From the NCBI RefSeq assembly GCF_045037415.1, contig NZ_CP173438.1: a stretch of 64,000 nt of DNA. One strand, given 5' to 3'. Under the pieces are notes generated by a model. It saw only the letters and a program-made list of their open reading frames with translations, was not told where the DNA came from and did no database searches. This stretch comes from Escherichia coli. GTDB taxonomy: Bacteria > Pseudomonadota > Gammaproteobacteria > Enterobacterales > Enterobacteriaceae. This document shows positions 4,769 through 62,071 of the stretch, piece after piece. Made by a program: the position numbers and the translations under genes. Position 1 is the stretch's first letter. Every line of letters begins with the position of its first letter.

Positions 4769-4808
4769 GTGTTCTGTCCATCCTTCAGTAATCGTTATCT
4801 TTTAAACC

Positions 4809-4839
4809 GTAGACCGACCCCCTATCCACGTCGGTCTAC
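4809..4839. repeat. Inverted repeat / stem-loop in the sucB-sucC intergenic region
   Basis: gtagaccgac ... gtcggtctac, 10-bp arms, about 11-nt loop. Confidence 0.5.
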
Positions 4840-4861
4840 AGTGCAGGTGAAGCTTAAACTA

Positions 4862-6079
4862 CTACACGTCCAGCAGCAGACGCGTCGGATCTTCCAGCAA
4901 CTCTTTGATCGTTACCAGGAAGCCCACGGATTCGCGACCATCGATCAAACGGTGATCGTAGGACAGCGCCAGGTACATCATCGGCAGGATCTCAACCTGG
5001 CCATTCACCGCCATCGGACGATCTTTGATAGCGTGCATACCCAGAATTGCGCTCTGCGGCGGGTTGATGATAGGCGTAGACATCAGGGAACCGAACACAC
5101 CACCGTTGGTGATGGTAAAGTTACCACCAGTCAGATCTTCAACCGTCAGCTTGCCGTCACGGCCTTTAACTGCCAGCTCTTTAATTTTCTTCTCGATGTC
5201 TGCCATGCCGAGGGTATCGACATCACGCAGAACCGGCGTCACCAGGCCGCGCGGCGTAGAAACCGCCATACTGACGTCGAAATAGTTGTGGTAGACCACA
5301 TCATCGCCGTCGATAGACGCATTCACTTCCGGGTAACGTTTCAGGGCTTCAACCACCGCTTTCACGTAGAAGGACATAAAGCCCAGACGGATGCCGTGGC
5401 GTTTTTCAAACGCTTCACCGTACTGCTTACGCAGATCCATAATCGGCTTCATGTTGACTTCGTTGAACGTGGTCAGCATGGCGGTGGAGTTTTTCGCTTC
5501 CAGCAGACGCTCTGCCACACGCTTACGCAGGCGAGTCATCGGCACACGTTTTTCGCTACGTGCAGCCAGGGCCGGTTGCGCCGCCGGAGCAGCCGCTGCC
5601 GGAGCAGACTCTTTCGCCGGGGCTTTCGCCAGATGTTTTTCCACATCTTCACGGGTCAGACGACCACCCACACCCGTGCCTTTAATGGCGCTGGCGTCGA
5701 GGTTATGTTCAGCCAGCAGGCGACGGATCGCCGGGCTTAACGCATCGTTGTTTTGCTCTTCCAGAGACGCCTGCTGGCGTTGCGCCGGAGTGGACGCTTT
5801 CTCTTCAGATTTGGCGCTGGTTTCTTTACCGGCGCTGTTGCCTTCACGCAGGCGACCAAGGATCTGACGAGACGTTACGGTTGTACCTTCATCTTCCAGA
5901 ACCGCATCCAGAATGCCGTCTGCTGATGCCGGTACTTCCAGTACCACTTTGTCAGTTTCGATTTCTACCAGCACTTCATCACGTACGACTACGTCGCCGG
6001 GTTTTTTATGCCAGGTTGCGACGGTGGCATCGGCTACGGATTCAGGCAGGTCAGGGACCAGAATATCTACGCTACTCAT
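4862..6079 (-). CDS. sucB: 2-oxoglutarate dehydrogenase E2, dihydrolipoyllysine succinyltransferase
   Basis: 405 aa; lipoyl domain ([13 protein letters not shown]), Ala/Pro-rich linker, catalytic domain DHRLIDG. Confidence 0.97.
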
Positions 6080-6093
6080 TGTGTATCCTTTAT

Positions 6094-8895: not shown

Positions 8896-9068
8896 CGTGA
8901 TCCCTTAAGCATCTTTTTTATGCTTACTTCGCCGTGGATACTACCACGCACATTTCATATCTGATGTGCGTGCCGGGGTTCACTTGTTGCGGACTTGTCG
9001 TGTTTTCTGCGTCCGCTAAGGAACCTTTAAAAACTGTCTTAGTGTCAGGGGCAGTTTTTAAAGATTTC

Positions 9069-9258
9069 CTGCATTTCTTTTGTAGGCCGGATAAGGCATT
9101 CACGCCGCATCCGGCGCTGTTTGCCTGATGCGACGCTTGCGCGTCTTATCAGGCCTACGGTTTCTGCATTTCTTTTGTAGGCCGGATAAGGCGTTCACGC
9201 CGCATCCGGCACTGGTTGCCTGATGCGACGCTTGTGCGTCTTATCAGGCCTACGGTTT
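9069..9258. repeat. Tandem duplication of a roughly 95-bp REP/BIME unit
   Basis: Two near-identical copies of ctgcatttcttttgtaggccggataaggc-ttcacgccgcatccggc...gcctgatgcgacgctt-gcgcgtcttatcaggcctacggttt, abutting the sdhB stop codon. Confidence 0.75.
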
Positions 9259-9973
9259 ACGCATTACGTTGCAACAACATCGACTTGATATGGCCGATGG
9301 CGCGCGTCGGGTTCAGCCCCTTCGGACATACACTGACGCAGTTCATGATGCTGTGACAGCGGAATACACTGAATGCATCGCTCAAACCGTCGAGGCGGCT
9401 GTCAGTCTCGGTATCACGGCTATCGATCAGGAAACGATATGCCGCTAACAAGCCTGCCGGACCGATAAACTTATCGGGATTCCACCAGAAAGACGGACAA
9501 GAGGTTGAACAACATGCGCAGAGAATACATTCATACAACCCGTCGAGTTTTTCGCGCTGCTCTGGCATCTGTAAATGCTCGCGAGCTGGCGGATTTTGTC
9601 CATTATTCAACAGGTAAGGCTTAATTTTCTCATATTGCGCATAGAATTGTCCCATGTCTACCACCAAATCGCGGATCACCGGTAAACCTGGCAGCGGACG
9701 AATCACAATCTTCTTGCCCGGCTGGTTGAGTGCCGAAATCGGGGTAATACAGGCCAGACCATTCTTACCGTTCATGTTCAGACCGTCGGAACCGCACACA
9801 CCTTCACGGCAGGAGCGGCGGAACGACAGGCTGGGATCTTTCTCTTTCAGCTGAATAAGCGCATCCAGCAGCATCATGTCGCGACCTTCTTCCGCTTCCA
9901 GGGTGTAATCCTGCATACGCGGAGCATCATCAACATCCGGGTTATAGCGATAAATTGAAAACTCGAGTCTCAT
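9257..9973 (-). CDS. sdhB: succinate dehydrogenase iron-sulfur subunit
   Basis: 238 aa; Cys clusters for 2Fe-2S, 4Fe-4S and 3Fe-4S. Confidence 0.97.
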   Translation of the reverse strand: MRLEFSIYRYNPDVDDAPRMQDYTLEAEEGRDMMLLDALIQLKEKDPSLSFRRSCREGVCGSDGLNMNGKNGLACITPISALNQPGKKIVIRPLPGLPVIRDLVVDMGQFYAQYEKIKPYLLNNGQNPPAREHLQMPEQREKLDGLYECILCACCSTSCPSFWWNPDKFIGPAGLLAAYRFLIDSRDTETDSRLDGLSDAFSVFRCHSIMNCVSVCPKGLNPTRAIGHIKSMLLQRNA

Positions 9974-9988
9974 TTTCCTGTCTCCGCA

Positions 9989-11755
9989 TTAGTAAGTACG
10001 AATCTTCGGCGGGAATGCCGGGCGCAGTTTCGGTTCCATGTTGACGCTTCGGCGCGTCATGGATTCCGACTCTGGCAGATACAGGGAGTGGCACAGCCAG
10101 TTTTCATCATCACGATCCGGGAAGTCGAAGCGGCTATGCGCGCCACGGCTTTCGGTACGGAAGTTGGCAGAAACAGCCGTTGCATACGCCGTTTCCATCA
10201 GGTTATCCAGTTCCAGGCACTCAACGCGCTGGGTGTTGAACTCGCTGGAAGTGTCATCCAGACGGGCATTTTTCAGACGCTCGCGGATAACTTTCAACTG
10301 CTCAAGCCCTTTCGCCATCGCATCACCTTCACGGAAGACCGAGAAGTTATGCTGCATACATTCTTGCAGTGCTTTACGGATCGCCACCGGATCTTCACCG
10401 TTACGGTTATTGTTCCAGCGGTTCAGGCGATCCAGAGACGCTTCTACATCAGACTCGCTGGCATCGCGCAGTGCGCCCTGCTCGGCGATAGACTCTTGCA
10501 GATGCAGACCTGCCGCACGACCAAATACCACCAGGTCCAGCAGCGAGTTGCCGCCCAGACGGTTAGCGCCGTGTACCGATACACAAGCGATTTCACCAAC
10601 GGCAAACAGCCCCGGAACAACCACATCTTCGCCTTTCTCATTCACCGTCAGCGCCTGACCGGTCACTTTGGTCGGAATACCGCCCATCATGTAGTGACAG
10701 GTTGGGATAACCGGAATCGGCTCTTTCACCGGATCGACGTGAGCGAAGGTACGGGAGAGTTCCAGAATACCCGGCAGACGGGATTCGAGAACTTCTTTCC
10801 CCAGATGGTCAAGTTTCAGTTTTGCGTGTGGCCCCCACGGACCATCACAGCCGCGACCTTCACGGATTTCGATCATGATGGAACGCGCCACCACGTCACG
10901 GCCCGCCAGGTCTTTGGCGTTCGGCGCATAACGCTCCATAAAGCGTTCGCCATGTTTGTTCAGCAGATAACCGCCTTCACCACGGCACCCTTCGGTGACC
11001 AGTACGCCCGCACCGGCAATACCGGTCGGGTGGAACTGCCACATTTCCATATCCTGCACCGGTACGCCTGCACGGATAGCCATGCCGACACCGTCGCCAG
11101 TGTTAATGTGGGCGTTGGTGGTGGACTGATAAATACGCCCTGCCCCGCCAGTCGCCAGCACTGTCGCGCGAGCTTTAAAGTAAACCACTTCACCAGTTTC
11201 GATGCACAGTGCGGTACAACCGACCACTGCGCCATCCTGGTTTTTCACCAGATCCAGCGCATACCACTCGGAGAAAATGGTGGTGTGGTTTTTCAGGTTC
11301 TGCTGATAAAGCGTGTGCAACAGTGCGTGACCGGTACGGTCAGCTGCCGCCGCAGTACGTGCCGCCTGCTCGCCGCCGAAGTTTTTCGACTGACCGCCAA
11401 ACGGACGTTGATAGATACGACCATCATCAAGACGCGAGAACGGCAGGCCCATATGTTCCAGTTCCAGAATCGCTTCCGGCCCGGTTTTACACATATATTC
11501 AATCGCGTCCTGGTCACCGATATAGTCCGACCCTTTTACGGTGTCGTACATATGCCATTCCCAGTTATCTTCATGGGTATTACCCAGCGCAACGGTAATA
11601 CCACCTTGCGCAGAAACGGTATGGGAACGGGTCGGGAAGACCTTAGAGAGCAGCGCACAGGTCTGGCCACTCTGGGAAATTTGCAGCGCCGCGCGCATAC
11701 CTGCGCCGCCAGCACCAATCACAACTGCATCAAATTCTCTGACTGGCAATTTCAT
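9989..11755 (-). CDS. sdhA: succinate dehydrogenase flavoprotein subunit
   Basis: ORF-track frame 9989..11767; start placed at internal Met ([22 protein letters not shown]) where it overlaps the sdhD stop. Confidence 0.95.
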
Positions 11756-12102
11756 CACACACCCCACACCACAACGAATCCATAAATCACGTAAACCACC
11801 AGTGCAACGACAATCACCAGTTGCAGCATCAGGCGCAAGGCCAGCGGTTTAACGTAGTCGGTCAACACCTGCCACATGCCGATCCAGGCATGGATCAAGA
11901 TAGAAAACAGCGCCAGCAGGGTGAACACTTTGGTGAACGCAGAGGCGAAGAAACCAATCCAGACTTCATATGTCAGCTCGCCACTGGTAGCGAAAAAACC
12001 GACCATATAAATGATGTAGAGCGTCAGGACGATAGCGGTAGCACGAACGAGGATGAAATCATGTACGCCATTGCGTCCTAATGCGGAGGCGTTGCTTACC
12101 AT
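11755..12102 (-). CDS. sdhD: succinate dehydrogenase membrane anchor subunit
   Basis: 115 aa hydrophobic protein in the sdhCDAB operon. Confidence 0.95.
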
Positions 12103-52784: not shown

Positions 52785-53003
52785 CGTGGATTCCTCAAAG
52801 CGTAAACAACGTATAACGGCGTATGATCTTATAAGCGGGACAGGCTGACAACTGTTAGTTAGCGAAAAAATGGTTTTGCGTAAGATATTGGGGCGTTTTC
52901 TGCGCTACTGCCAGCAGATCCTCGCGCTGGAAACGTAAGGCCAAACGTCGCCAGCCTGACGCATTTATTAAATTTCCGGATGAGCTGGCCGCAGAGTCGT
53001 AGA

Positions 53004-53765
53004 TTAGTCGGCTATGATTAAACGCGTCGACAAGGACGCAAGCGTTCTACGCGTCTGCCCATCAAGCTGACTATCCGTAATAATCTCTGTCAGTTCATTA
53101 AGATGCGCGATATTAAACAGCGACCATGAACCGTATTTTGAGCTGTCAGCCAGGAGAATTTTGCGCGAAGCATGCGCGATAAGATCGCGTTTTAGTGCGG
53201 CTTTCTCTTCCGTGGGTGCTGTAATACCCTTTTCAAGATCCCAGCTGTTACAGCTTAAAAATGCCACGTCCGGCCAGGTATTTTGCAGCAATTTACGACC
53301 ATGTTCGCCAATGCAGGACTGGCTGGAGTCGTCAATACGTCCGCCGATAATCGTCACTTCAATTTGCTTGAATTCAGCCAAAAAAAGCGCGATATGCAGG
53401 TCGCTTGTGATCACGCGAAGCGGTAAATGTGTAATCTGCCGCGCAAGTTCAATCATTGTCGTACCGGCATCAAGGACGACGGAATCCCCCGCTTTGACCA
53501 TTGACGCCGCTGCGCTGGCGATGGCATGTTTTTCCGCCAGGCTGCGCTGCATTTTCTCATGGGTAGTCGGTTGGGTAGGAATAAACCGGTTGAGAGTCAC
53601 ACCGCCGTGTGTACGGCTGATAACACCCTGCTCATCGAGTTTTATCAGGTCTCGACGAATCGTAGCCGGCGACGCATTGGTTACCGCCACCAGCTCATCT
53701 ACGGTGACCAGATTATGGCTTTTCAGGTAATCCATGATCTGCTCTAACCGGTTATATCCCTTCAT
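53004..53765 (-). CDS. DeoR-family transcriptional regulator
   Basis: 253 aa; N-terminal HTH ([17 protein letters not shown]) and C-terminal sugar-phosphate sensor domain. Confidence 0.85.
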
Positions 53766-53766
53766 T

Positions 53767-54753
53767 TTATTCTCGCGAAATCTGCATTGCTAACTGGATG
53801 GAAACTGCCATGCTCTCAGACTTGGCTTTTCCTGTCCAGGCAATATCAAACGCGGTGCCGTGGTCGGCAGAAGTGCGAATAAATGGCAACCCGGCGGTGA
53901 TATTCACCCCATCATAAAATCCAAGCAGTTTTAAAGGGATATGCCCCTGATCGTGGTACATAGCCACTACCATATCGAATAGCCCTTCATGGCATTGCAT
54001 AAACACGGTATCTGGCGGGCACGGGCCAGTAACATCAATATCTTCGGCCTGCATTGCTTCAATCGCAGGCGCGATAATCTCGATTTCCTCAGTGCCGAAT
54101 AAACCATGTTCCCCTGCATGTGGATTTACACCCGCCACGGCAATACGCGGACGCTCAATACCAACACGTTTCAGGAAGTGGTTCGCAACTCGAATAACCG
54201 TTTTGACCCTTTCACCATTCAAAGTATCCAGGAATTTACGCAGTGAGATGTGAGTCGAAATATGGATAACCTTGAGCTTCTCGGTATAGAGCACCATCGC
54301 GTACTCTTTGCTGCCGGTAAGATGGGCCAGCAATTCCGTATGCCCCGGATAGTTATGCCCGCCAAGATGCAGCGCTTCTTTATTCAGCGGCGCAGTGGCT
54401 ATGGCTTTCACCTCGCCTGATAAGGCCAGAGCCGTTGCACGTTTGATACAGCGATACGCTAAATCGCCTGCCACAGCCTGTACCACTCCGGGTGTCAGCG
54501 CATCGGGGTTAGCCAGCGGCTCATCCATCACGTTAATCACGCCGGGAGCAAAATGGGCGTCGCACACCTTTTGAATGACGCGTAACTCTGCCTGCGGCGT
54601 GATATTCATCGCCATAATACGTCGCAGCGTGCGCACACAGCCCACCACCACCACCGGGGCACCAGCAAGCCCGGCTTCGCTCAGGGATTTAATAATGATC
54701 TCCGGGCCAATACCCGCCGGATCGCCCATCGTTACCGCAATAATATTATTCAC
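53767..54753 (-). CDS. PdxA-family NAD-dependent dehydrogenase (PdxA2-like, 4-phospho-hydroxy-acid oxidative decarboxylase type)
   Basis: 328 aa; [21 protein letters not shown]-terminus typical of PdxA; 8-nt overlap with the upstream kinase. Confidence 0.85.
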
Positions 54754-55984
54754 TACGCTTCTCCTCGATAAAATTCAGAACCTGATGCAACGTGGTCTCA
54801 TCGCCAAACCCACCGGCTTTCGTCATCACCGAACGGGACCAGACGCCGCCCAGAAAGTGACCGTATGGAACGCATTGCGCCACCTTCCCCGTAATACGAA
54901 ATCCGGTCGCGCCTAACGCACTGGCTGTTGCCATTGCGACATCACCACCAGAGAGATAAAGCGCATCGGGCATTGCGCAAAGCAGAACTTGCCGGGTAAG
55001 TTCGCCAAGAAACCGGCAAATTTTTTCCCCAAGTGCAGCGCGACTCATCTGCCAACGCTGGCAAAGGGTGTCGATCTGATGCCTTGCTACAGAATCGTTA
55101 CAGGTGTGGACAATACAGTGGTCGCCTTTCTGCAAGGCCTGCACAATACGCGCGTCATAGTCACTGGCATTGCCTGCCAGAATGTGTTCAACATCGACGT
55201 ATATCTGTGTGATACGTGGGTGTGAATGAAGTGTGGCGATCTGCCGTTGAGCGATTTCGCTCATTGAACCAATAATGGCCAGCACGGTGGGTGGCGGCAT
55301 AATCGCGGAGCGCCGGGCAACGGCATCACAAATACCAGCGGAGCCGACCAGCAGCAGCGGTTGTTTAGCCTGCATCACAGCGGCAGCGATGCGATCCAGG
55401 TCGCTGTCCGTCTGCGCATCTATCACGCCAATCCACGGTTGCTCATAAGACAAATGGCTGAGCTGAGAAACCGTAACGGGCTGGCATGGAATGGCCGTCT
55501 GCAACCGGATGATGTCCGCAATTCGGGCGCTCAATACCGGGGTTTTCGGATCGCTAGCAAACTCGGTTTCCGTTATCCGCACACCGTTTACCCAACACTC
55601 ACCGGCCACTGTGGTCCTTCCCGCCTGAGGAAATGCGGGGGCAACCACTGCGCCCGTTATACCGCATGCCTTCATCAGGGCTTCAATTTCTGCGCCGATA
55701 TTGCCTCGCAGCGTGGAATCTATCTTTTTAATCACGAGCGGCGGGTTATTCGCCAGAGGGAGATGACTCATCAGCGAGGTTATTTTCATCGCCGCCAGCT
55801 TAGGATCCATCGCCCGACTGTCGCTGTTAATCACCCATACGCTGGCATCACCGCGATAAGGCATTTCAAAGGCCACATCAACTGTATGCCCCACCTGCGC
55901 CAGGCTTACCCCCGCGTCGTTGGCTCCCGTGAAATCATCGGCAACGATGAGAATGCTCGGCTTAGTGATTCCCTTTTCCATCAT
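54746..55984 (-). CDS. DUF1537-family four-carbon acid-sugar kinase
   Basis: ORF-track frame to 56023 (TTG); start placed at tandem Met MMEKGITKPSILIVADDFTGANDAG, typical of the family. Confidence 0.8.
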   Translation of the reverse strand: MMEKGITKPSILIVADDFTGANDAGVSLAQVGHTVDVAFEMPYRGDASVWVINSDSRAMDPKLAAMKITSLMSHLPLANNPPLVIKKIDSTLRGNIGAEIEALMKACGITGAVVAPAFPQAGRTTVAGECWVNGVRITETEFASDPKTPVLSARIADIIRLQTAIPCQPVTVSQLSHLSYEQPWIGVIDAQTDSDLDRIAAAVMQAKQPLLLVGSAGICDAVARRSAIMPPPTVLAIIGSMSEIAQRQIATLHSHPRITQIYVDVEHILAGNASDYDARIVQALQKGDHCIVHTCNDSVARHQIDTLCQRWQMSRAALGEKICRFLGELTRQVLLCAMPDALYLSGGDVAMATASALGATGFRITGKVAQCVPYGHFLGGVWSRSVMTKAGGFGDETTLHQVLNFIEEKRSE

Positions 55985-56019
55985 CACTCCAGGTTGTTTT
56001 ATGATAACAATGATTATAT

Positions 56020-56033
56020 TCAATCATGATTGA
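56020..56033. promoter_or_regulatory. Perfect 14-bp palindrome TCAATCA|TGATTGA, candidate operator
   Basis: Located about 35 bp upstream of the kinase start in the divergent intergenic region. Confidence 0.4.
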
Positions 56034-56116
56034 TTAAATGTGAGCAAGCTCAAGTTATTAATCACTCGAATAAATTATAAAATTAGACCATGTTACGTAG
56101 GCTACGGCATTTTGAA

Positions 56117-56132
56117 TGATTGAATTCAATCA
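56117..56132. promoter_or_regulatory. Perfect 16-bp palindrome TGATTGAA|TTCAATCA, candidate operator
   Basis: Same half-site as 56020..56033 in opposite arrangement; about 20 bp upstream of the Fe-ADH start. Confidence 0.4.
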
Positions 56133-56150
56133 CCAGAAGAGAGGTTATTT

Positions 56151-57308
56151 GTGGTAATTATCAATAGCACGATACTGAGCGGCGCAGGCGCTATCCCTTC
56201 CCTGACGTCGCTCTTACCCGACATCAGAAAAATGCTGCTGGTCACTGACCGTAATATTGCGCAGCTCGACGGTGTGCAGCAGATTCGCGCCTTACTGGAA
56301 AAGCACTGCCCGCAGGTTAACGTTATCGATAATGTGCCCGCAGAGCCCACGCATCATGATGTGCGCCAGCTAATGGATGCCCTTGGCGATGCCTCTTTTG
56401 ATGTGGTGGTCGGGATCGGCGGTGGCAGCGTGTTGGATGTGGCGAAGCTGCTATCGGTGCTTTGCCATCCACAATCACCGGGGCTGGATGCGCTGCTTGC
56501 GGGTGAAAAACCGACTCAGCGGGTGCAATCATGGTTGATTCCTACAACCGCCGGAACCGGCTCAGAAGCCACGCCGAATGCGATTCTGGCAATCCCTGAG
56601 CAAAGCACGAAGGTGGGTATTATTTCCCAGGTGCTGTTACCAGACTATGTGGCGCTTTTCCCGGAACTGACCACCAGTATGCCCGCGCATATTGCGGCGT
56701 CCACGGGCATTGATGCTCTTTGCCACTTACTGGAGTGTTTTACCGCGACCGTGGCAAATCCGGTCAGCGATAACGCGGCGCTGACTGGGTTAAGTAAACT
56801 TTTCCGGCACATTCAACCCGCCGTGAACGATCCTCAGGATCTGCGCGCAAAACTGGAAATGCTGTGGGCGTCTTACTATGGCGGCGTAGCGATAACCCAT
56901 GCGGGCACGCATCTCGTTCATGCGCTCTCCTACCCGTTAGGTGGCAAATATCATCTGCCGCATGGCGTCGCGAATGCCATCTTGCTGGCGCCGTGCATGG
57001 CGTTTGTTCGCCCCTGGGCGGTCGAGAAATTTGCCCAGGTCTGGGATTGCATTCCCGATGCGGAAACCGCCCTGAGCGCGGAAGAAAAATCTCATGCCCT
57101 GGTGACCTGGTTACAGGCATTAGTCAATCAACTCAAGCTACCCAACAATCTCGCGGATCTCGGCGTACCGCCAGAGGATATTGCCTCTCTGAGCGAGGCG
57201 GCACTGAACGTGAAGCGCCTTATGAACAATGTGCCGTGCCAGCTTGATCTACAGGACGTACAGGCCATTTACCAAACACTGTTTCCGCAACATCAATTTA
57301 AGGAATAA
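56151..57308 (+). CDS. iron-containing (group III) alcohol dehydrogenase
   Basis: 385 aa; GTG start with GAGAGG Shine-Dalgarno; GGGSVLD and metal-binding His motifs. Confidence 0.85.
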   Translation: MVIINSTILSGAGAIPSLTSLLPDIRKMLLVTDRNIAQLDGVQQIRALLEKHCPQVNVIDNVPAEPTHHDVRQLMDALGDASFDVVVGIGGGSVLDVAKLLSVLCHPQSPGLDALLAGEKPTQRVQSWLIPTTAGTGSEATPNAILAIPEQSTKVGIISQVLLPDYVALFPELTTSMPAHIAASTGIDALCHLLECFTATVANPVSDNAALTGLSKLFRHIQPAVNDPQDLRAKLEMLWASYYGGVAITHAGTHLVHALSYPLGGKYHLPHGVANAILLAPCMAFVRPWAVEKFAQVWDCIPDAETALSAEEKSHALVTWLQALVNQLKLPNNLADLGVPPEDIASLSEAALNVKRLMNNVPCQLDLQDVQAIYQTLFPQHQFKE

Positions 57309-57311
57309 ATC

Positions 57312-58199
57312 ATGCCGAAAACCATTGAAGGTGTATTAACCGCTATCGTCACCCCGTTTACCGCGACCGGCAGTCTGAATATCCCGGCGTTAAAAGTGCA
57401 GGTGAATCGTCAACTGGAAGCGGGTAACGCGATTTTTTGCGGCGGCACCAACGGCGAGTTTTTTGTGTTGAATGAACAGGAGAAGCTCAGCGTTACGCAA
57501 ACCTGCGTGGATGAAGTGGCTGGTCGTGCGCCAGTCGTGGCACACATTGGCGAGATCTCTACGCGCGAAACGATTCGTCTGGGTCAGCAGATTGAAAAAC
57601 TTGGCGTAGATGCCGTGTCGGTCATTGCCCCTTACTTCGTACCGCTGAAACAGGAAGAGTTGATTGCGCATTACAGCGCAATTGCCGACACACTGAGCAT
57701 TCCGATGTTTCTCTATAACATCCCGGCCCGCACTGGCAATACGATCCAGCCAGAAACCGCGCGTGCTCTGGCGTCGCACCCCAATATCATTGGGATTAAA
57801 GACAGCGACGGAAGCGACGAAAGCCTGAAGGGTTTTCTCGATGCGGTGCGCGACATTGACGGCTTTAATGTGCTCAACGGCCCGGATTCGCTGATCCATA
57901 AAGGGTTTGTCGAGGGATGTTCAGCCTGTATCTCTGGGCTCGCCAACGTCGCGCCGCGAGAAATCAATGCCATCTGGTCTCGCTTCCATGCCGGTGATAT
58001 TGAAGGGTCTTATGAAGCACAGGAGAGTGTAACGGGCCTGCGTACCGATCTTTATAAAGTAGCATTCTCCCCGGCTGCGGTGAAAAAAGCGTTGCAGCTT
58101 ATGGGGCATGATGTTGGTGATAGCCGCTACGCGGTTAATTTCACGCCTGAACAGATCAGCGAGATTCAACAAATTATTCGTCATTATAACATTAATTAA
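57312..58199 (+). CDS. DapA/NanA-family class I aldolase (pyruvate-lyase type)
   Basis: 295 aa; GTNGEF motif, Schiff-base lysine in IIGIKDS, Tyr in LYNIP. Confidence 0.85.
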   Translation: MPKTIEGVLTAIVTPFTATGSLNIPALKVQVNRQLEAGNAIFCGGTNGEFFVLNEQEKLSVTQTCVDEVAGRAPVVAHIGEISTRETIRLGQQIEKLGVDAVSVIAPYFVPLKQEELIAHYSAIADTLSIPMFLYNIPARTGNTIQPETARALASHPNIIGIKDSDGSDESLKGFLDAVRDIDGFNVLNGPDSLIHKGFVEGCSACISGLANVAPREINAIWSRFHAGDIEGSYEAQESVTGLRTDLYKVAFSPAAVKKALQLMGHDVGDSRYAVNFTPEQISEIQQIIRHYNIN

Positions 58200-58258
58200 A
58201 TTAACTCTATTATCCAGCCCGCTATAAAGTTTAGATAAAGAGAATAAAGGATTACCCC

Positions 58259-59017
58259 ATGTTTTTGTGGTTTATGCAGCCAGATATCTGGCTCACTTTA
58301 ATTACCCTCACCTTTCTGGAAATTATTCTTGGGGTGGATAATATTATTTTTCTTTCACTGGTGGTGGCAAAACTTCCGTTATCACAACAAAATATGGCGC
58401 GTAAACTGGGTTTAAGCTGCGCGATGATTATGCGGATATTATTGCTGATATCCATTGCGTGGCTTTCACATATTACCCAGCCGCTTTTTACCGTGCTGAC
58501 GCTGGAGATTTCGTTCCGCACGTTGATTCTGCTCGGGGGCGGGCTGTTCCTGATTTATAAAGCGATACAGGAGATACGCGAAGAGCTGTCGCCCGCGCAG
58601 GAAGACGAACATGGCAGCGGATCGCGGCAACTGTCGTTGTGCGGTGCCATTGTACAGATAATGCTGCTCGATATCGTGTTTAGCCTGGATTCGGTGATCA
58701 CCGCCGTCGGCCTTTCTCAGCATATATTTATCATGATTGCCGCCGTAATGATTGCCGTCGGTGTCATGATGTTTGCGGCGAAAACAATTGGTGATTTCGT
58801 TAACGCCACGCCGTCAATAAAAATACTGGCGTTAACCTTTTTATTGTTTGTCGGTGTATTGCTGGTTGCCGATAGTCTCAACATTCATATTGCCAAAGAG
58901 TATCTCTACTTCGCGATATTTTTCTCATTAAGTGTTGAGACACTCAATATTATCCGTGAAAGAAAAAATAAAAAAGTTTCGACATTGATCGAAACGCATG
59001 AATCGCACTCGCATTAA
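58259..59017 (+). CDS. TerC-family integral membrane protein (YgdQ-like)
   Basis: 252 aa; LGVDNIIFLSLVVAKLP and QIMLLDIVFSLDSVITAVGL motifs. Confidence 0.8.
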   Translation: MFLWFMQPDIWLTLITLTFLEIILGVDNIIFLSLVVAKLPLSQQNMARKLGLSCAMIMRILLLISIAWLSHITQPLFTVLTLEISFRTLILLGGGLFLIYKAIQEIREELSPAQEDEHGSGSRQLSLCGAIVQIMLLDIVFSLDSVITAVGLSQHIFIMIAAVMIAVGVMMFAAKTIGDFVNATPSIKILALTFLLFVGVLLVADSLNIHIAKEYLYFAIFFSLSVETLNIIRERKNKKVSTLIETHESHSH

Positions 59018-59052
59018 TAAATCTATTACCAACTTTAAGATGGAGTCTAACT

Positions 59053-60222
59053 ATGTCTGTAGCCCTTATTCGTGACGGCGTCATCCGTCCATCCGAAAAC
59101 GATTCGCATGTGCTTACCGCCATGCTGCCCTCGTCCTGCCCGCAAAACCACGCGGCGAATATTCTGCCTTTGCCGGATGGCGCGTTAATGTGCGTCTGGT
59201 TTGCGGGAACGCAGGAAGGTATTGCCGATATTTCTGTCTGGGGATCGCGATTGCCCGCTGGCGGAATGCAGTGGAGCGATGCGGCCAAACTTTCCCACGA
59301 TGACACGCGTTCAGAGCAAAACCCGGTGCTGTTTCTCGCGCCGGATAACGTGCTGTGGCTCCTATGGACCGCACAAATATCCGGTAATCAGGACACCGCC
59401 ATCGTCCGCTACCGTAAGTCAGACGACCTCGGACAAACCTGGGGCGAGATTGCCACCCTGCTTGATAAACCCGGTACGTTCATTCGACAGCCAATCACGG
59501 TGCTTGATAACGGCAACTGGCTGCTGCCCGTCTTTTATTGCCGTACCCAACCCGGCGAAAAATGGGTCGGCAATGATGATATCAGCGCAGTGAAAATTTC
59601 CGCTGACGGTGGTCACTCCTGGCGCGATGTCGAGGTGCCGCAAAGTCTCGGCTGTGTTCATATGAATATCACAATGTTGCACGACGGTACGTTGGTTGCT
59701 CTCTTTCGCAGCCGTTGGGCAGACAACATCTATATCAGCCATTCAGTGGACAACGGCGAGAGTTGGTCGGTGCCGCAAGCAACCGAATTGCCCAACAACA
59801 ATTCGTCTATTCAGGTAACGACGCTTGCCAGCGGCGAACTGGCGCTGGTGTACAACGCGATGAGTGCGGCAGGCGCAGTAGAACGTCGCGCGTCGCTTTA
59901 TGACGAAATCGACGATGGCGACGACAGCCGCAAAGAACCGACAGCCGTCGGACGCTCCGCTTTCTGGGGTGCCCCACGCGCGCCGATGACGGTAGCGATT
60001 TCTGCCGATGGTGGGAAAAGCTGGTCGTGGCGGCGCAATCTCGATGAAGGCGACGGCTACTGCATGACCAACAATTCCCTGGAAAAGCTAAATCGTGAGT
60101 TCTCCTACCCCAGCATCAAACAAAGCCCGGACGGTACGCTACATATCGCTTACACCTGGTGGCGTCAGGCCATCAAGTACGTACGCATCTCCCCCGAGTG
60201 GGTTAAGGGGCAGGCATCATGA
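59053..60222 (+). CDS. BNR/Asp-box repeat protein, sialidase-like beta-propeller, no signal peptide
   Basis: 389 aa; four Asp-boxes (SDDLGQTW, SADGGHSW, SVDNGESW, SADGGKSW); N-terminus not hydrophobic. Confidence 0.8.
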   Translation: MSVALIRDGVIRPSENDSHVLTAMLPSSCPQNHAANILPLPDGALMCVWFAGTQEGIADISVWGSRLPAGGMQWSDAAKLSHDDTRSEQNPVLFLAPDNVLWLLWTAQISGNQDTAIVRYRKSDDLGQTWGEIATLLDKPGTFIRQPITVLDNGNWLLPVFYCRTQPGEKWVGNDDISAVKISADGGHSWRDVEVPQSLGCVHMNITMLHDGTLVALFRSRWADNIYISHSVDNGESWSVPQATELPNNNSSIQVTTLASGELALVYNAMSAAGAVERRASLYDEIDDGDDSRKEPTAVGRSAFWGAPRAPMTVAISADGGKSWSWRRNLDEGDGYCMTNNSLEKLNREFSYPSIKQSPDGTLHIAYTWWRQAIKYVRISPEWVKGQAS

Positions 60223-60689
60223 TTATCGGTAATCTCAACCATTTGTCGCTGGCGGGGCTTCCTGCCTGGGTGAGAAATATTCTGCTGCGCCCGGAGTGTT
60301 CGTTATCGGCGTTATCCACCAGAGAGGACGGTCGCTGGCAACCTGAAGGATGTCGGTGGTTCTGCTCGCTGGGAACTTCAGACACGCAACCCGCCGAACT
60401 TCGCCATACGGAGTATCACCATCTATGGGCCGATATACAGGTGGTGATTACTGGTTGTGAGGGCATTAATGCGGGAACGCGGCCCATCGCTCGCGAAAAC
60501 GATGAAGAACGTAAGCCCGATCTGTTTATCGCCCCATCCCCTGAAAACAGTGTCGCCATCACCCTACACGCCGGTGATTTCGCCGTCTTTATGCCTGAGG
60601 AACCTCACCAGGCACTGTGCGCAATTGGCACGGCTACTTCAATACGCAAAGCGGTCTTTAAAGTACCGCGCGACATGCTGGAAGCCTAA
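60219..60689 (+). CDS. YhcH/YjgK/YiaL-family (DUF386) protein
   Basis: 156 aa; ATGA start/stop overlap with the BNR gene. Confidence 0.75.
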   Translation: MIIGNLNHLSLAGLPAWVRNILLRPECSLSALSTREDGRWQPEGCRWFCSLGTSDTQPAELRHTEYHHLWADIQVVITGCEGINAGTRPIARENDEERKPDLFIAPSPENSVAITLHAGDFAVFMPEEPHQALCAIGTATSIRKAVFKVPRDMLEA

Positions 60690-60702
60690 AAGGAGAGAAA
60701 AA

Positions 60703-61983
60703 ATGACAATGGAAATGATCCTGGCATTAGGAATACTGGTCCTGATGATCGTGCTGATCATGTCGGACAAAATGCCTTTTGGCGCACCGCCACTGCTTGC
60801 GTGTTTATTGCTGGTTGTATCGGGACTTTCGACCGTTCAACAGGCTTTTGCCGGATTCGTCAATCCAAGCGTGGTGATGATTGCAGGGTTTATGGTGGTC
60901 ATGGCGGCGCTACAAAAAACCCGGCTTATCAGCAACGTTAAATCTGCGATGATAAGCCTGGTCAATAAAGGCAGTTACCGCAGCTATGGGCTGTTATTAG
61001 TCATTGTTATGCTGGGTGCCAGTCTTGCCGGCACCGGAGCGACCGGTTATTACGTGCTAATTCTGTCGCTGGTATCCACCATTCCGTACAGTAAAAAGCT
61101 ACCAACATCGAAATTAATGATGCCCCTGGGATTTGCCACCAACCACCCGCTTCTTCCTATCAATCTCGCGCTTCTCTTTGGCGTTACGGCGACCGTACTC
61201 GAAACCGCGGGGTTTCATCAGGCGATTTCGATGGGGCGCTTTGCGCTGGTGAATCTCATCATGTCAGCGGCTTTCCTCGCATGGAGTCTTATTGCCTACC
61301 GTTTTCTTCCGGATCATCCCATTGCGGATGCTTCCGAGGATGCGCTGGCGGCACGCGAGGAAACGTTTAACGCCCTTCCTGCCTGGAAAGAATATTGCAC
61401 TATTGCCGCATTCGCTGTCAGCGTTATCGGCATGATGCTAATGAACATTCTGGGAAATATCGCCTTCGTTATTCCGGGTCTTGCGGGTGCGTTTGTTCTG
61501 ATGATCGATGTACTGGACTTCAAAGAAGTTCGCGATCATATGGGGGCTCCGGTCATTTTAATGATGGCGGGGGTGATCGGTGTAGCTGATGCACTGGCGG
61601 GCACCGGCTTTACGGCGATGGTTGGCGATGCCGTTGCAGGTGTGCTCGGTTCTGGCGTCTCACCGTTTGTATTTATTGTCGCCTTTGCTTTGCTTACCAG
61701 TACCTGCGCCACCTTCACGGGTTCGAATATGGGGTCAGTATATATTTTTGCCCCCATCGCCATTGCCGCCTGTACTAGCCTTGGGCTTAACCCGACCGCT
61801 GCCGCGATTGCGGTGGTGATTTCTGGCTGGAATGGCGGCTATATGCCTATTGACGGAATGCCAGCCATGATCCTCGGAATGGGGAAATACAAACTTCCCG
61901 AATTCTGGGTGTTCTCTGTACCAATGTATCTCATCCGCATTCTGGCGCTTTGTGCAGGCGCTGTTTTTATCTTCCCAATGTAA
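60703..61983 (+). CDS. polytopic permease, ion-transporter superfamily (DASS/CitMHS-like), substrate unknown
   Basis: ORF-track frame from 60457 overlaps upstream genes; start placed at ATG 60703 (MTMEMILALGILVL) after AAGGAGAG Shine-Dalgarno. Confidence 0.75.
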   Translation: MTMEMILALGILVLMIVLIMSDKMPFGAPPLLACLLLVVSGLSTVQQAFAGFVNPSVVMIAGFMVVMAALQKTRLISNVKSAMISLVNKGSYRSYGLLLVIVMLGASLAGTGATGYYVLILSLVSTIPYSKKLPTSKLMMPLGFATNHPLLPINLALLFGVTATVLETAGFHQAISMGRFALVNLIMSAAFLAWSLIAYRFLPDHPIADASEDALAAREETFNALPAWKEYCTIAAFAVSVIGMMLMNILGNIAFVIPGLAGAFVLMIDVLDFKEVRDHMGAPVILMMAGVIGVADALAGTGFTAMVGDAVAGVLGSGVSPFVFIVAFALLTSTCATFTGSNMGSVYIFAPIAIAACTSLGLNPTAAAIAVVISGWNGGYMPIDGMPAMILGMGKYKLPEFWVFSVPMYLIRILALCAGAVFIFPM

Positions 61984-61991
61984 TCTCAGAC

Positions 61992-62027
61992 AAAAAAAGC
62001 GGCAGAGAAGATCCCTGCCGCTTTTTA
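61992..62027 (+). terminator. Intrinsic terminator of the island-B plus-strand operon
   Basis: aaaaaaagcggcag-agaagatcc-ctgccgcttttt hairpin with a T-run. Confidence 0.65.
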
Positions 62028-62032
62028 TTGTT

Positions 62033-62057
62033 GGATGCGACGCTGCCGCGTCGCATC
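62033..62057. repeat. REP-like palindrome between the island-B operon and nagE
   Basis: ggatgcgacgc-tgc-cgcgtcgcatc. Confidence 0.4.
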
Positions 62058-62071
62058 AGACATAAAGCAGA

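Follow-up and report, generated by a model that had tools for sequence, protein, structure and literature searches.

Bacteria are already known to degrade D-threonate through a branch formed by the kinase DtnK and the dehydrogenase PdxA2 (Zhang et al. 2016 PNAS, according to the summary in PMC10971088). In the sialic-acid (nan) system of E. coli, whose substrate is freed by sialidase, SiaT/NanT serves transport, NanQ/YhcH is the anomerase, and NanA, a class I pyruvate lyase from the NanA/DapA family, breaks the 2-keto-3-deoxy sugar acid down to pyruvate and an aldehyde. The glucarate/galactarate enzymes GarL (aldolase), GarR (tartronate-semialdehyde reductase), and GarK (glycerate kinase) take a keto-deoxy diacid to pyruvate and an aldehyde-acid; reduction of the latter to a hydroxy-acid precedes phosphorylation. 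The HpaI/HpcH 4-hydroxy-2-oxoheptanedioate aldolase splits a C7 2-keto-4-hydroxy diacid into pyruvate and the C4 aldehyde-acid succinate semialdehyde. Also among the closest described systems is the rhamnogalacturonan-II (RG-II) utilization locus of Bacteroides thetaiotaomicron, whose BT1020 protein (GH143) is a Dha hydrolase (bioRxiv 10.64898/2026.03.13.711244).

An accessory island between glnS and nagE

We analyzed a 64-kb stretch of E. coli DNA (hereafter, the window), which contains a nine-gene accessory island of 9,128 bp (~9.1 kb) between glnS and nagE (Table 1). BLAST comparison of the K-12 glnS–nagE spacer with the window indicates that 43 bp of that spacer are replaced by the island. 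The island is an all-or-none feature, present in 1048 of 5426 complete E. coli genomes at an identity of at least 98.6%; its carriers, about one-fifth of strains, include uropathogens and Nissle 1917.

The minus-strand unit encodes a DeoR regulator, PdxA2, and a DUF1537 kinase, whereas the divergent unit comprises the six plus-strand genes of Table 1. The ORFs named in an earlier note on this DNA are real and intact, matching PGAP proteins in 100%-identical E. coli genomes, but the interval it drew (53004–57308) ends 4 bp short of the DapA-family gene that it cites. It correctly placed Fe-ADH and DapA-family genes in the divergent operon but left out the four further plus-strand genes, encoding the TerC, BNR, YhcH/NanQ-like, and permease proteins. 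Gene starts follow PGAP for the kinase (411 aa; a 425-aa TTG ORF reaching 56023 is over-extended) and for the permease (a 508-aa ORF from 60457 is an over-extension).

Table 1. Features of the island, in window coordinates.
Feature	Position	Strand	Basis or location
Accessory island, B2-type E. coli	52861..61988	.	BLAST and presence in complete genomes
DeoR/GlpR-family regulator	53004..53765	-	ORF, NCBIfam
PdxA2, D-threonate-4-phosphate dehydrogenase (decarboxylating), product DHAP + CO2	53767..54753	-	NF002891, PDB 6E85
DUF1537 kinase DtnK (D-threonate kinase)	54746..55981	-	NF047819, PDB 4XFM
Operator-like inverted repeat 1, TGATTATATTCAATCA	56011..56026	.	30 bp upstream of kinase start codon
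Operator-like inverted repeat 2, TGATTGAATTCAATCA	56117..56132	.	19 bp upstream of Fe-ADH start codon
Iron-containing alcohol dehydrogenase (Fe-ADH)	56151..57308	+	Family matches, motifs
DapA/NanA-family class I pyruvate aldolase	57312..58199	+	Family scores, conserved residues
TerC-family membrane protein	58259..59017	+	YkoY/YjbE subfamily matches under cut-off
Cytoplasmic sialidase-fold BNR_2 protein, six-bladed beta-propeller	59053..60222	+	Fold
YhcH/YjgK/YiaL-family protein, NanQ-like	60219..60689	+	TIGR00022
CitMHS/SLC13 (DASS-type) anion permease	60703..61983	+	Pfam, PGAP start

Predicted functions and regulation

PdxA2 scores 679 bits against NCBIfam NF002891 (D-threonate 4-phosphate dehydrogenase; cut-off 583) and 581 bits against PDB 6E85, which is titled "D-threonate 4-phosphate dehydrogenase." The kinase, whose gene overlaps pdxA2 by 8 bp, scores 531 bits against NF047819 (D-threonate kinase; cut-off 450). 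Because these curated equivalog cut-offs are exceeded, both proteins belong, by their sequences, to the D-threonate enzyme families, which bears out the earlier assignment of the pair to four-carbon acid-sugar catabolism. The best solved relative of the kinase, PDB 4XFM (316 bits), is the 93%-identical ortholog of the kinase in a Pectobacterium cluster of the same type. The island kinase is only ≈40% identical to the Salmonella enzyme (PMC12928451) and ≈40 to 44% identical to characterized or crystallized DtnK proteins (PMC12928451 and our comparison).

The Fe-ADH matches lactaldehyde reductase, 4-hydroxybutyrate dehydrogenase, and other models, all under their equivalog cut-offs, and carries a GGGS motif along with Asp/His metal-ligand motifs. 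We predict that it reduces the C4 aldehyde-acid 2,3-dihydroxy-4-oxobutanoate to D-threonate. The DapA-family protein, a predicted ulosaric-acid lyase, also falls under every equivalog cut-off (DapA, 188.9 versus 206; NanA, 142 versus 281) and keeps the Schiff-base Lys163 and Tyr135. Its Arg140 aligns with DapA Arg138, which in DapA holds the carboxylate group of aspartate semialdehyde, a C4 aldehyde-acid; NanA has a leucine at this position.

The BNR protein has a sialidase fold and is predicted to be a ketosidase for an ulosaric acid. Overlapping its gene by 4 bp is that of the YhcH-family protein, which exceeds the TIGR00022 cut-off (94.9 bits versus 45.5), scores 90.6 against the NanQ equivalog, under the cut-off of 160, and may act as an anomerase or ring opener. 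The permease, the predicted importer, matches Pfam CitMHS (2.5e-21) and Na_sulph_symp (9e-12). The TerC gene, found in 2 of 80 related loci, is restricted to the type of cluster found in E. coli and Kluyvera, and a search for a riboswitch in connection with it detected none.

The DeoR protein, the sole regulator within the island, matches the AgaR, GlpR, and YgbI families in NCBIfam, all under equivalog cut-offs. Exact TGATT-N6-AATCA occurs twice in the window, both times inside the 169-bp spacer between the kinase and Fe-ADH genes, with the two repeats 106 bp apart. The motif is kept in 12 of 12 orthologous spacers, across genera, and is ≈98-fold enriched there relative to the remainder of the loci. 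Through these two putative operators, the DeoR protein is probably the repressor of both divergent promoters.

Related clusters and a candidate pathway

For comparison, we used the BNR protein to retrieve 80 species loci and counted partner genes within 10 kb. PdxA is present in 61 of these loci, the kinase in 52, an aldolase in 62, and an aldehyde reductase in 63, with all four functions together in 47; a DeoR-family gene (38 loci) and a YhcH-family gene (18 loci) are also found. These genes co-occur with the BNR gene across Proteobacteria, Firmicutes, and Actinobacteria, forming one co-directional operon in Bacillus, Paenibacillus, Burkholderia, and Pseudomonas. BNR, DapA-like, Fe-ADH, and PdxA genes are found on S. 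meliloti pSymB, R. etli p42b, and A. fabrum pAt and in Ralstonia and Pantoea, with the DUF1537 kinase gene listed as well in all but Pantoea, and Ralstonia (766 aa) and Arthrobacter (813 aa) carry kinase–PdxA fusions within operons of this kind. In 12 loci, the BNR gene has no other pathway gene within 10 kb, and some of these are BNR–SSS–SDR modules. An SDR oxidoreductase and an SSS transporter accompany most related clusters and are absent from the E. coli island; the permease is replaced in other taxa by SSS, family-5 ABC, or TctC/TTT transporters.

The co-occurrence of all four functions, the co-directional operons and fusions, and the conserved operator-like pair strongly support, by comparative genomics, the functional link between the divergent units that the earlier note proposed, and the two very probably constitute one pathway. 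Both the aldolase and the reductase have substitutes: DapA-like aldolases (50 loci) and GarL/HpaI-type class II aldolases (12 loci) never share a locus, Fe-ADH (53 loci) gives way to an aldo-keto reductase in 11, and in Actinobacteria the non-homologous GarL/HpaI-type aldolase and aldo-keto reductase stand in for both. GarL and HpaI split 2-keto-3-deoxy dicarboxylates into pyruvate and an aldehyde-acid. This independent exchange for non-homologous enzymes of the same predicted function supports the reading that a C7 keto-deoxy acid is split into pyruvate and a C4 fragment, as suggested earlier for an acid of seven or more carbons. We infer such a split; no other carbon arithmetic would connect a pyruvate aldolase with a C4 kinase. 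The BNR, YhcH, and permease genes sharpen this guess to a sialic-acid-like ulosaric acid, and the use of CitMHS/SLC13 or TctC-type carboxylate transporters in some loci fits the proposed roles.

In the proposed pathway, the permease would import a sialic-acid-like 2-keto-3-deoxy sugar acid, either free or as a small glycoside; the BNR protein would free the acid from its ketoside in the cytoplasm, with the YhcH/NanQ-like protein speeding anomer interconversion or ring opening. The aldolase would then cut between C3 and C4 to give pyruvate and a four-carbon aldehyde-acid, Fe-ADH would reduce the latter to D-threonate, and DtnK would phosphorylate D-threonate at C4 for oxidative decarboxylation by PdxA2 to DHAP and CO2. 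The net yield would be pyruvate, DHAP, and CO2, and the route would be redox-neutral because the NAD(P)H consumed by Fe-ADH is regenerated by PdxA2. The order from aldolase through reductase to D-threonate, including the direction of the reductase, appears fairly likely.

The most likely substrate is Dha (3-deoxy-D-lyxo-hept-2-ulosaric acid), a ketosidically linked C7 diacid of pectic rhamnogalacturonan-II, an assignment that we make tentatively, as close to an even call. To our knowledge, Dha is the only natural C7 2-keto-3-deoxy diacid. By Fischer-projection derivation, its C5 and C6 have the D-threo configuration, so cleavage and reduction would give D-threonate rather than L-threonate or erythronate; the same reasoning applied to Kdo correctly gives D-arabinose. 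Homologs are concentrated in Rhizobium, Sinorhizobium, Agrobacterium, Ralstonia, Pantoea, Pectobacterium, Dickeya, Erwinia, Gilliamella, Paenibacillus, and the Klebsiella oxytoca group, and six loci have GH28, pectinesterase, or GH127 genes next to the cluster, a plant and pectin link that argues for Dha. Dha is attached to the galacturonan backbone by a β-2,3 linkage, and brief heating releases side chain D (PMC12282258; bioRxiv 10.64898/2026.03.13.711244). Counting against the proposal as a whole are the modest identity of the kinase to characterized DtnK proteins, the 12 loci in which the BNR gene lacks pathway partners, and the equivalent of Arg140, which is a lysine in Ralstonia and is missing in a divergent R. 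etli paralog. Import of free Dha would make a cytoplasmic ketosidase needless, and import of a glycoside would leave an aglycone to account for. The SDR of most related clusters is given no role in the Dha model, and SSS transporters, which usually serve monocarboxylic sugars (for example, sialic acid), count against it. In the literature searched, we found no paper on this pathway or on a route of Dha breakdown.

The same architecture could instead be fed by another plant or algal acid, ulosaric or uronic and possibly not yet described, and all support for the pathway logic fits it equally; the SDR partner and SSS transporters even hint at chemistry that Dha does not require. We nevertheless consider it unlikely, given the pectinase neighbors, the plant-associated host range, and the match between the D-threo tail of Dha and the D-threonate enzymes. 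More doubtful still is the earlier note's literal version, in which a monocarboxylic 3-deoxy-heptulosonic acid yields pyruvate and a free tetrose that is oxidized to tetronate before entering the kinase/PdxA2 steps. Sialic-acid-type SSS transporters (34 of 61 core loci) and SDRs with glucose- or rhamnose-1-dehydrogenase-like matches in most clusters suit this version, but the E. coli island has neither an SDR nor an aldehyde dehydrogenase, only Fe-ADH. The conserved redox partner is of the aldehyde reductase type (Fe-ADH/AKR) and co-varies with the aldolase, whose alternative, the GarL/HpaI type, acts on diacids. No natural heptulosonate ending in a D-threo tail is known to us, and DAH would yield erythrose.

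That two unrelated modules, a Salmonella-type D-threonate unit and a separate sialic-acid-like sugar unit, merely abut is improbable. The units are divergently transcribed in E. coli, and the Salmonella deoR-pdxA2-dtnK unit of Zhang et al. 2016 reportedly acts, with its own GntP permease, on imported D-threonate. However, no permease belongs to the minus-strand unit of E. coli, many phyla have the genes interleaved or in a common operon, with kinase–PdxA fusions inside those operons, the operator-like pair is shared and conserved, and the island is all-or-none in 1048 genomes. A role for the kinase and PdxA2 in vitamin B6 (PLP) synthesis or 4-hydroxy-L-threonine detoxification has been proposed for this region (PMC12928451). 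DUF1537/PdxA2 pairs are able to supply PLP synthesis with 4-hydroxythreonine phosphate (Thiaville et al. 2016, as relayed in PMC12928451, PMC10971088, and PMC9997740), and PdxA2 also exceeds the cut-off of the general PdxA model TIGR00557. Yet PdxA2 is regarded as a catabolic paralog (PMC9997740), the D-threonate equivalogs are the best matches of the pair, and the pair sits in accessory DNA with a transporter, regulator, aldolase, and reductase in a catabolic-style cluster, making this role very improbable. As the best explanation overall, we lean toward a single inducible catabolic pathway with Dha as its most likely substrate.

Relation to known systems

Like the DtnK/PdxA2 module, the island passes the curated D-threonate models and has adjacent, overlapping genes with a DeoR regulator alongside, but it lacks a GntP-type D-threonate permease and joins an upstream aldolase/reductase/BNR unit that would make D-threonate intracellularly. 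With the nan system, it shares the cleavage chemistry and the kinds of components, namely the class I lyase, the YhcH-family protein, a GH33-like β-propeller, and, in the clusters of other taxa, the SSS transporter. In contrast, the island lyase and YhcH protein lie under the equivalog cut-offs for NanA and NanQ, the propeller protein is cytoplasmic, and the NanK, NanE, and NagA/B steps are all absent, the aldehyde going instead to the predicted reductase and the C4 kinase/PdxA2 pair. For Dha itself, BT1020 (GH143) was reportedly assigned as the hydrolase of the B. thetaiotaomicron RG-II locus by Ndeh et al. in 2017. Dha is the 5,6-dihydroxy analogue of the HpaI/HpcH substrate, and in 12 of 80 loci a member of that family takes the place of the DapA-like gene; the E. 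coli island aldolase, however, is of class I (Schiff-base), and the HpaI pathway serves aromatic catabolism. The proposed logic is identical to that of the Gar enzymes, and the actinobacterial versions of the cluster use a GarL/HpaI-family aldolase, whereas the aldolase, reductase, and kinase of the E. coli island come from different protein families. The proposed island route would be one carbon longer (C7 to C3 plus C4) and would additionally require oxidative decarboxylation by PdxA2 to reach triose phosphate.

The glnS–nagE island and its divergent spacer

The island is a nine-gene accessory block on the E. coli chromosome, and the 9.2 kb around its kinase, PdxA2, and Fe-ADH genes are 100% identical in ST131-like and other human isolates. 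Relative to K-12, the island (9,128 bp) stands in place of 43 bp of the glnS–nagE spacer, and its flanks hold neither an integrase nor repeats. All nine genes of the PGAP annotation in this interval are intact in the window. The island is an all-or-none feature, found in 1048 of 5426 complete E. coli genomes, among them UTI89, F11, and Nissle 1917; 1047 of these copies are full-length, at an identity of at least 98.6%. A 2026 comparative study refers to the region as "GR 6 nagE..glnS," common to ExPEC strains and uncharacterised there (PMC12928451). Just beyond the right border, downstream of nagE, lies a REP-like palindrome (GGATGCGACGC...GCGTCGCATC) that is also kept in K-12, with the island/core junction approximately 30 bp ahead of it.

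The genes are tightly packed: pdxA2 and dtnK overlap by 8 bp, the gene for the iron-containing alcohol dehydrogenase (Fe-ADH) is 3 bp from that for the dihydrodipicolinate-synthase-family (DapA-like) protein, and the genes for the sialidase-fold (BNR) protein and the YhcH-like protein overlap by 4 bp. These small overlaps and gaps suggest translational coupling, and the adjacent kinase and pdxA2 genes, on one strand, are predicted to be co-transcribed. Two open reading frames extend beyond the annotated starts of the permease and kinase genes. An Rfam scan of the island gave no match and no riboswitch ahead of the TerC gene.

Two 16-bp inverted repeats lie 106 bp from each other in the 169 bp that separate the kinase and Fe-ADH genes; no other site in the 64-kb window matches TGATT-N6-AATCA exactly. 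Each of the 12 orthologous spacers that we compared (from Kluyvera, Lelliottia, Enterobacter, Cedecea, Pectobacterium, Dickeya, Erwinia, Pantoea, Budvicia, Gilliamella, and Vibrio) has the same motif, usually in two copies, and there it is ≈98-fold enriched relative to the rest of the loci. Because the island has only one DeoR-family gene, the simplest reading is that a single DeoR-family repressor would act on both promoters through these candidate operators. A scan for sigma-70 promoters and terminators stayed at background level and placed no promoter in the divergent spacer.

Genes and sites of the island and features of related loci (positions refer to the window unless another locus is named)
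Feature	Position	Strand	Annotation or remark
Island	52861-61988		
deoR		-	PGAP: DeoR regulator
pdxA2		-	PGAP: D-threonate 4-phosphate dehydrogenase
pdxA2/dtnK overlap	54746-54753	-	
dtnK (DUF1537 kinase)	annotated start 55981	-	PGAP: dtnK D-threonate kinase
Over-extended kinase ORF	54746-56023	-	425 aa, TTG; covers inverted repeat 1
Inverted repeat 1	56011-56026		TGATTATATTCAATCA
Inverted repeat 2	56117-56132		TGATTGAATTCAATCA
Fe-ADH	56151-57308	+	PGAP: iron-containing alcohol dehydrogenase
DapA-like	57312-58199	+	PGAP: dihydrodipicolinate-synthase-family protein
TerC		+	PGAP: TerC-family protein
BNR protein	59053-60222	+	PGAP: sialidase family protein
YhcH-like	60219-60689	+	PGAP: YhcH/YjgK/YiaL-family protein
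Permease	annotated start 60703	+	PGAP: SLC13-family permease
Over-extended permease ORF	60457-61983	+	508 aa, GTG; runs into yhcH
REP-like palindrome	62020-62060		
Bosea L058, TctC-family gene	8894-9886		directly upstream of BNR gene
Comamonas L079, TctC-family gene	8813-9805		directly upstream of BNR gene
Pantoea L012, mini-module	4698-11850		SSS-BNR-SDR
Bacillus swezeyi L022, mini-module	6754-10174		SSS-BNR-SDR
Paenibacillus ginsengihumi L033	11337-12611		SLC13/CitMHS permease
Agrobacterium fabrum pAt plasmid L005	16592-21158		genes beside the cluster

The D-threonate branch and its linkage to the divergent operon

An earlier note on this DNA had read the pairing of a DUF1537 kinase with a PdxA-family protein as a signature of four-carbon acid-sugar catabolism, and curated models bear this out. 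The kinase scores 531.1 bits against the D-threonate kinase equivalog NF047819 (cut-off 450), the runner-up model being 3-oxo-tetronate kinase at 103.6 versus 350. PdxA2 scores 679.2 bits against the D-threonate 4-phosphate dehydrogenase equivalog NF002891 (cut-off 583) and 581 bits against PDB 6E85, an entry named D-threonate-4-phosphate dehydrogenase. The predicted activities, as annotated, are ATP-dependent phosphorylation of D-threonate and subsequent NAD-dependent formation of DHAP and CO2. This D-threonate branch is already known, the kinase/PdxA2 module having been characterised on the free C4 acid. The closest solved structure for the kinase is 4XFM (316 bits), which we take to be the P. 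atrosepticum DtnK of Zhang et al. 2016; its chain is 93% identical to the kinase of a Pectobacterium locus (L011), whose gene lies approximately 4 kb away from that for the BNR protein, so this very cluster type was the source of the protein that was crystallised. DtnK and DenK have been described as DUF1537 kinases acting on four-carbon acid sugars (PMC10971088), and PdxA2 as a catabolic paralog of PdxA (PMC9997740).

For neighbourhood comparison, we chose the BNR protein as the marker, since its gene is the most distinctive of the island. Close homologs (76-85% identical) occur in the Klebsiella oxytoca group, Kosakonia, Pantoea, Pluralibacter, and Yersinia, and plasmid-borne homologs are overwhelmingly from Rhizobium, Sinorhizobium, Pantoea, Ralstonia, and Agrobacterium. 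One gene set, made up of DapA-family, sialidase-family, Fe-ADH, PdxA, and four-carbon-acid-kinase genes, recurs on S. meliloti pSymB, R. etli p42b, and the A. fabrum pAt plasmid. The core genes in annotated neighbourhoods are interleaved, not split into two units; the Ralstonia operon, for example, runs dapA-adh-[766-aa protein]-SSS-BNR-deoR, the 766-aa protein being a DUF1537-PdxA fusion. Such kinase-PdxA fusions are found in both Ralstonia and Arthrobacter relatives.

One scan of species genomes contained at least 579 BNR relatives. With a 12-sequence BNR alignment and a single genome for each species, a related-locus scan gave 80 loci, from proteobacteria (Enterobacterales, Vibrio, Gilliamella, Burkholderiales, Pseudomonas, Rhizobiales, and Azospirillum) as well as from Bacillus, Paenibacillus, Negativicutes, Streptomyces, Nonomuraea, and Arthrobacter. 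Gene content within 10 kb of the BNR gene was assessed from GC3-filtered ORFs and by tblastn, since longest-ORF calling yields spurious antisense "families" in high-GC loci. By tblastn, PdxA was present in 61 of the 80 loci, the DUF1537 kinase in 52, an aldolase in 62, and an aldehyde reductase in 63, with all four functions together in 47. In Bacillus, Paenibacillus, Burkholderia, Pseudomonas, and others, the genes lie on a single strand in the order DapA-FeADH-DtnK-PdxA-SSS-BNR. The proposal that the divergent operon is functionally tied to the kinase/PdxA2 branch thus held up, on the interleaved and single-strand gene orders, the fusions, and the 47 complete loci. Gene context could hardly make a stronger case for one system, and the earlier interpretation is supported and open to sharpening.

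The genes around this core vary. The island permease is of the CitMHS/Na-sulfate-symporter type; among 61 core loci from other taxa, the transporter slot is filled by SSS (34), family-5 ABC (9), TctC/TTT (6), or CitMHS (2) proteins. The TctC/TTT assignment derives from a Pfam TctC match (2e-64), and in Bosea and Comamonas a gene for a TctC-family binding protein directly precedes the BNR gene; the TctC-family (tripartite tricarboxylate) transporter is a fourth, unrelated class recruited to the cluster. In Paenibacillus ginsengihumi, the SLC13/CitMHS permease is 76% identical to that of the island, and its neighbours are much more distant (BNR 63%, PdxA 49%, DapA-like 41%, and Fe-ADH 38%), which suggests recent cross-phylum transfer of the permease gene alone.

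An SSS transporter gene precedes the BNR gene in 41 of the 80 loci, and a FabG-like SDR (≈225-250 aa) is tblastn-positive in 64 (including L007, L011, L014, L026, L038, L041, L063, and L084); in most related clusters, it follows the BNR and YhcH genes. The E. coli and Kluyvera clusters have TerC and the CitMHS/SLC13 permease in the SDR and SSS positions, and the SDR is absent from the island.

The aldolase and reductase slots and a candidate substrate

The DapA-like protein retains the Schiff-base Lys163 and Tyr135 in alignment with reference sequences. It falls below the equivalog models for DapA (TIGR00674, 188.9 versus 206.15) and for NanA (NF003164, 142.3 versus 281; TIGR00683, 108.6 versus 382). 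We ruled out that its gene is the housekeeping dapA on the basis of this score and its location: a gene on accessory DNA that four fifths of E. coli genomes lack cannot be the essential one. Like DapA, the protein has an arginine (Arg140) in the YN(I/V)P(A/S)RTG motif, where NanA has leucine. The DapA arginine holds the carboxylate group of a C4 aldehyde-acid, aspartate semialdehyde, and Arg140 is a weak but consistent hint of C4 aldehyde-acid chemistry.

In the Arthrobacter cluster L084, which encodes an 813-aa fused kinase-PdxA, a family-5 ABC transporter, the BNR protein, and an SDR, Fe-ADH gives way to an aldo-keto reductase (AKR) and the DapA-like gene to a class II aldolase of the GarL/HpaI family. 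Among all 80 loci, the aldolase types are mutually exclusive (DapA-like in 50, GarL/HpaI-type in 12, both in none), and the reductases nearly so (Fe-ADH in 53, AKR in 11, together once only). Because unrelated protein families fill the same slot, there is good evidence that the predicted slot functions are those of a pyruvate aldolase and an aldehyde reductase. Both GarL and HpaI split 2-keto-3-deoxy (4-hydroxy-2-oxo) dicarboxylates into pyruvate and an aldehyde-acid, which is tartronate semialdehyde for GarL and succinate semialdehyde for HpaI.

For a pyruvate aldolase to supply a C4 acid kinase, the substrate would have to be a C7 2-keto-3-deoxy acid. Since a reductase, not an oxidase, stands between the aldolase and the kinase, the C4 fragment would be an aldehyde-acid and the substrate a C7 diacid, and the sialidase-fold enzyme together with the NanQ-like (YhcH-like) protein would point to a ketosidically bound, ring-forming ulosonic or ulosaric acid. 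Kdo, KDN, and Neu5Ac were ruled out because the aldoses that they yield on aldol cleavage are C5 or C6 and could not supply a C4 acid kinase. To our knowledge, the sole natural compound that fits a C7 ring-forming ketosidic diacid is 3-deoxy-D-lyxo-hept-2-ulosaric acid (Dha), a sugar almost unique to rhamnogalacturonan-II (RG-II) and some green-algal walls, which makes it our candidate substrate. The DapA-like aldolase would cleave Dha to pyruvate and D-threuronate, a C4 aldehyde-acid, which Fe-ADH, in an assumed reductive direction, would convert to D-threonate; the net conversion of Dha to pyruvate, DHAP, and CO2 would be redox-neutral.

The stereochemistry agrees in our own Fischer derivation. 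The D-lyxo configuration places the hydroxyls left, left, and right at C4, C5, and C6; the C4 centre is lost on cleavage, leaving D-threuronate, and after reduction and renumbering from the carboxylate, C2-OH left and C3-OH right define D-threonate. The same procedure applied to Kdo as a control correctly gave D-arabinose. As the Dha tail gives D-threonate, the predicted C4 product is the stereoisomer annotated for the kinase and PdxA2.

Some features sit less easily with the Dha route. The SDR does not fit, as the proposed pathway assigns it no role. In Pantoea (L012 and L013) and Bacillus swezeyi, there are SSS-BNR-SDR mini-modules whose surrounding 10 kb hold no gene for an aldolase, a reductase, the kinase, or PdxA; the Pantoea mini-module adjoins a PglB-like GH28 polygalacturonase, a tartrate dehydrogenase (TIGR02089, 573 versus 470), and a TtdR-like LysR regulator, and hints at an alternative route for the C4 diacid skeleton through tartrate. 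A cytoplasmic ketosidase also seems superfluous if free Dha is imported, and candidates for the imported species are the free acid, Dha-GalA, and an anhydro or unsaturated form.

The sialidase-fold protein, ecology, and relation to known systems

The BNR protein matches Pfam BNR_2 and has no signal peptide. Its AF2 model (pLDDT 94.6) shows the GH33-type fold, a six-bladed β-propeller with Asp-box (BNR) repeats. A single-sequence search of the PDB returned Asp-box matches only, and we therefore used a profile search and the predicted structure. GH33 enzymes share an arginine triad that includes the N-terminal (F/Y)RIP Arg, a Tyr/Glu nucleophile pair, and an Asp acid/base. A profile alignment puts Arg219/221, Arg309, and Tyr352 opposite Arg and Tyr residues of sialidases; the protein lacks the N-terminal RIP motif and has an invariant "NHA" (His33) in that region.

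The cluster is found mainly in plant-associated and pectinolytic bacteria, plus gut organisms. GH28 polygalacturonase-like genes adjoin it in Pantoea (L012, L013), Erwinia (L015), and Bacillus (L026, L030), the Bacillus L026 locus also having a pectinesterase-like gene. On the A. fabrum pAt plasmid, the genes immediately beside the cluster encode a LacI regulator, a sugar ABC transporter, and a member of GH127. That family comprises β-L-arabinofuranosidases and the RG-II aceric-acid hydrolase, and the plasmid-encoded member would suit removing the β-L-Araf cap from RG-II side chain D. In RG-II, Dha is β-2,3-linked to the galacturonan backbone and bears this cap (PMC12282258; bioRxiv 10.64898/2026.03.13.711244). 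Side chain D is freed by brief heating, and for several RG-II sugars secreted by B. thetaiotaomicron, the fate in other gut microbes is unconfirmed (bioRxiv 10.64898/2026.03.13.711244).

The open-access literature that we searched yielded no catabolic route for Dha, no link between an ulosaric acid and threonate, and no description of the function of this cluster or its proteins; the coupling of a sialic-acid-like front end to D-threonate generation is not described there. That the cluster encodes the first Dha catabolic pathway, including a new clade of cytoplasmic sialidase-fold "Dha-ketosidases," and so accounts for the natural source of D-threonate, is a serious possibility that we place slightly below an even chance. 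If true, concrete functions could be given to a widespread unannotated cluster and to a new clade within the sialidase superfamily. In the gut, B2 E. coli (ExPEC and Nissle 1917), the Klebsiella oxytoca group, and Megasphaera would feed on a pectin fragment supplied by Bacteroides or by cooking, a trait linked to diet and cross-feeding that would set B2/ExPEC and Nissle-type E. coli apart from K-12-like strains; in soil and plants, the pathway would serve rhizobia, Ralstonia, Pectobacterium, and Dickeya.

The island differs from each of the systems that it resembles. From the Nan sialic-acid cluster it is set apart by the aldolase, which falls below the NanA equivalogs, and by the YhcH-like protein, which falls below that for NanQ (NF040884, 90.6 versus 160) and matches the general YhcH/YjgK/YiaL model (94.9 versus 45.5). 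No NanK/NanE or other amino-sugar branch is present among the island genes, and the neighbouring nagE-nagBACD are core E. coli genes beyond the insertion. The propeller domain of the GH143 Dha hydrolase (BT1020 type) is not the closest structural or sequence relative of the BNR protein. Because the GarL/HpcH aldolase, GarR-type reductase, and GarK kinase families are absent from the E. coli island, its resemblance to the glucarate-type pathway is one of logic only, whereas related actinobacterial clusters carry a GarL/HpaI-family aldolase, which scores 143 bits against the 2-dehydro-3-deoxyglucarate aldolase model (cut-off 393).
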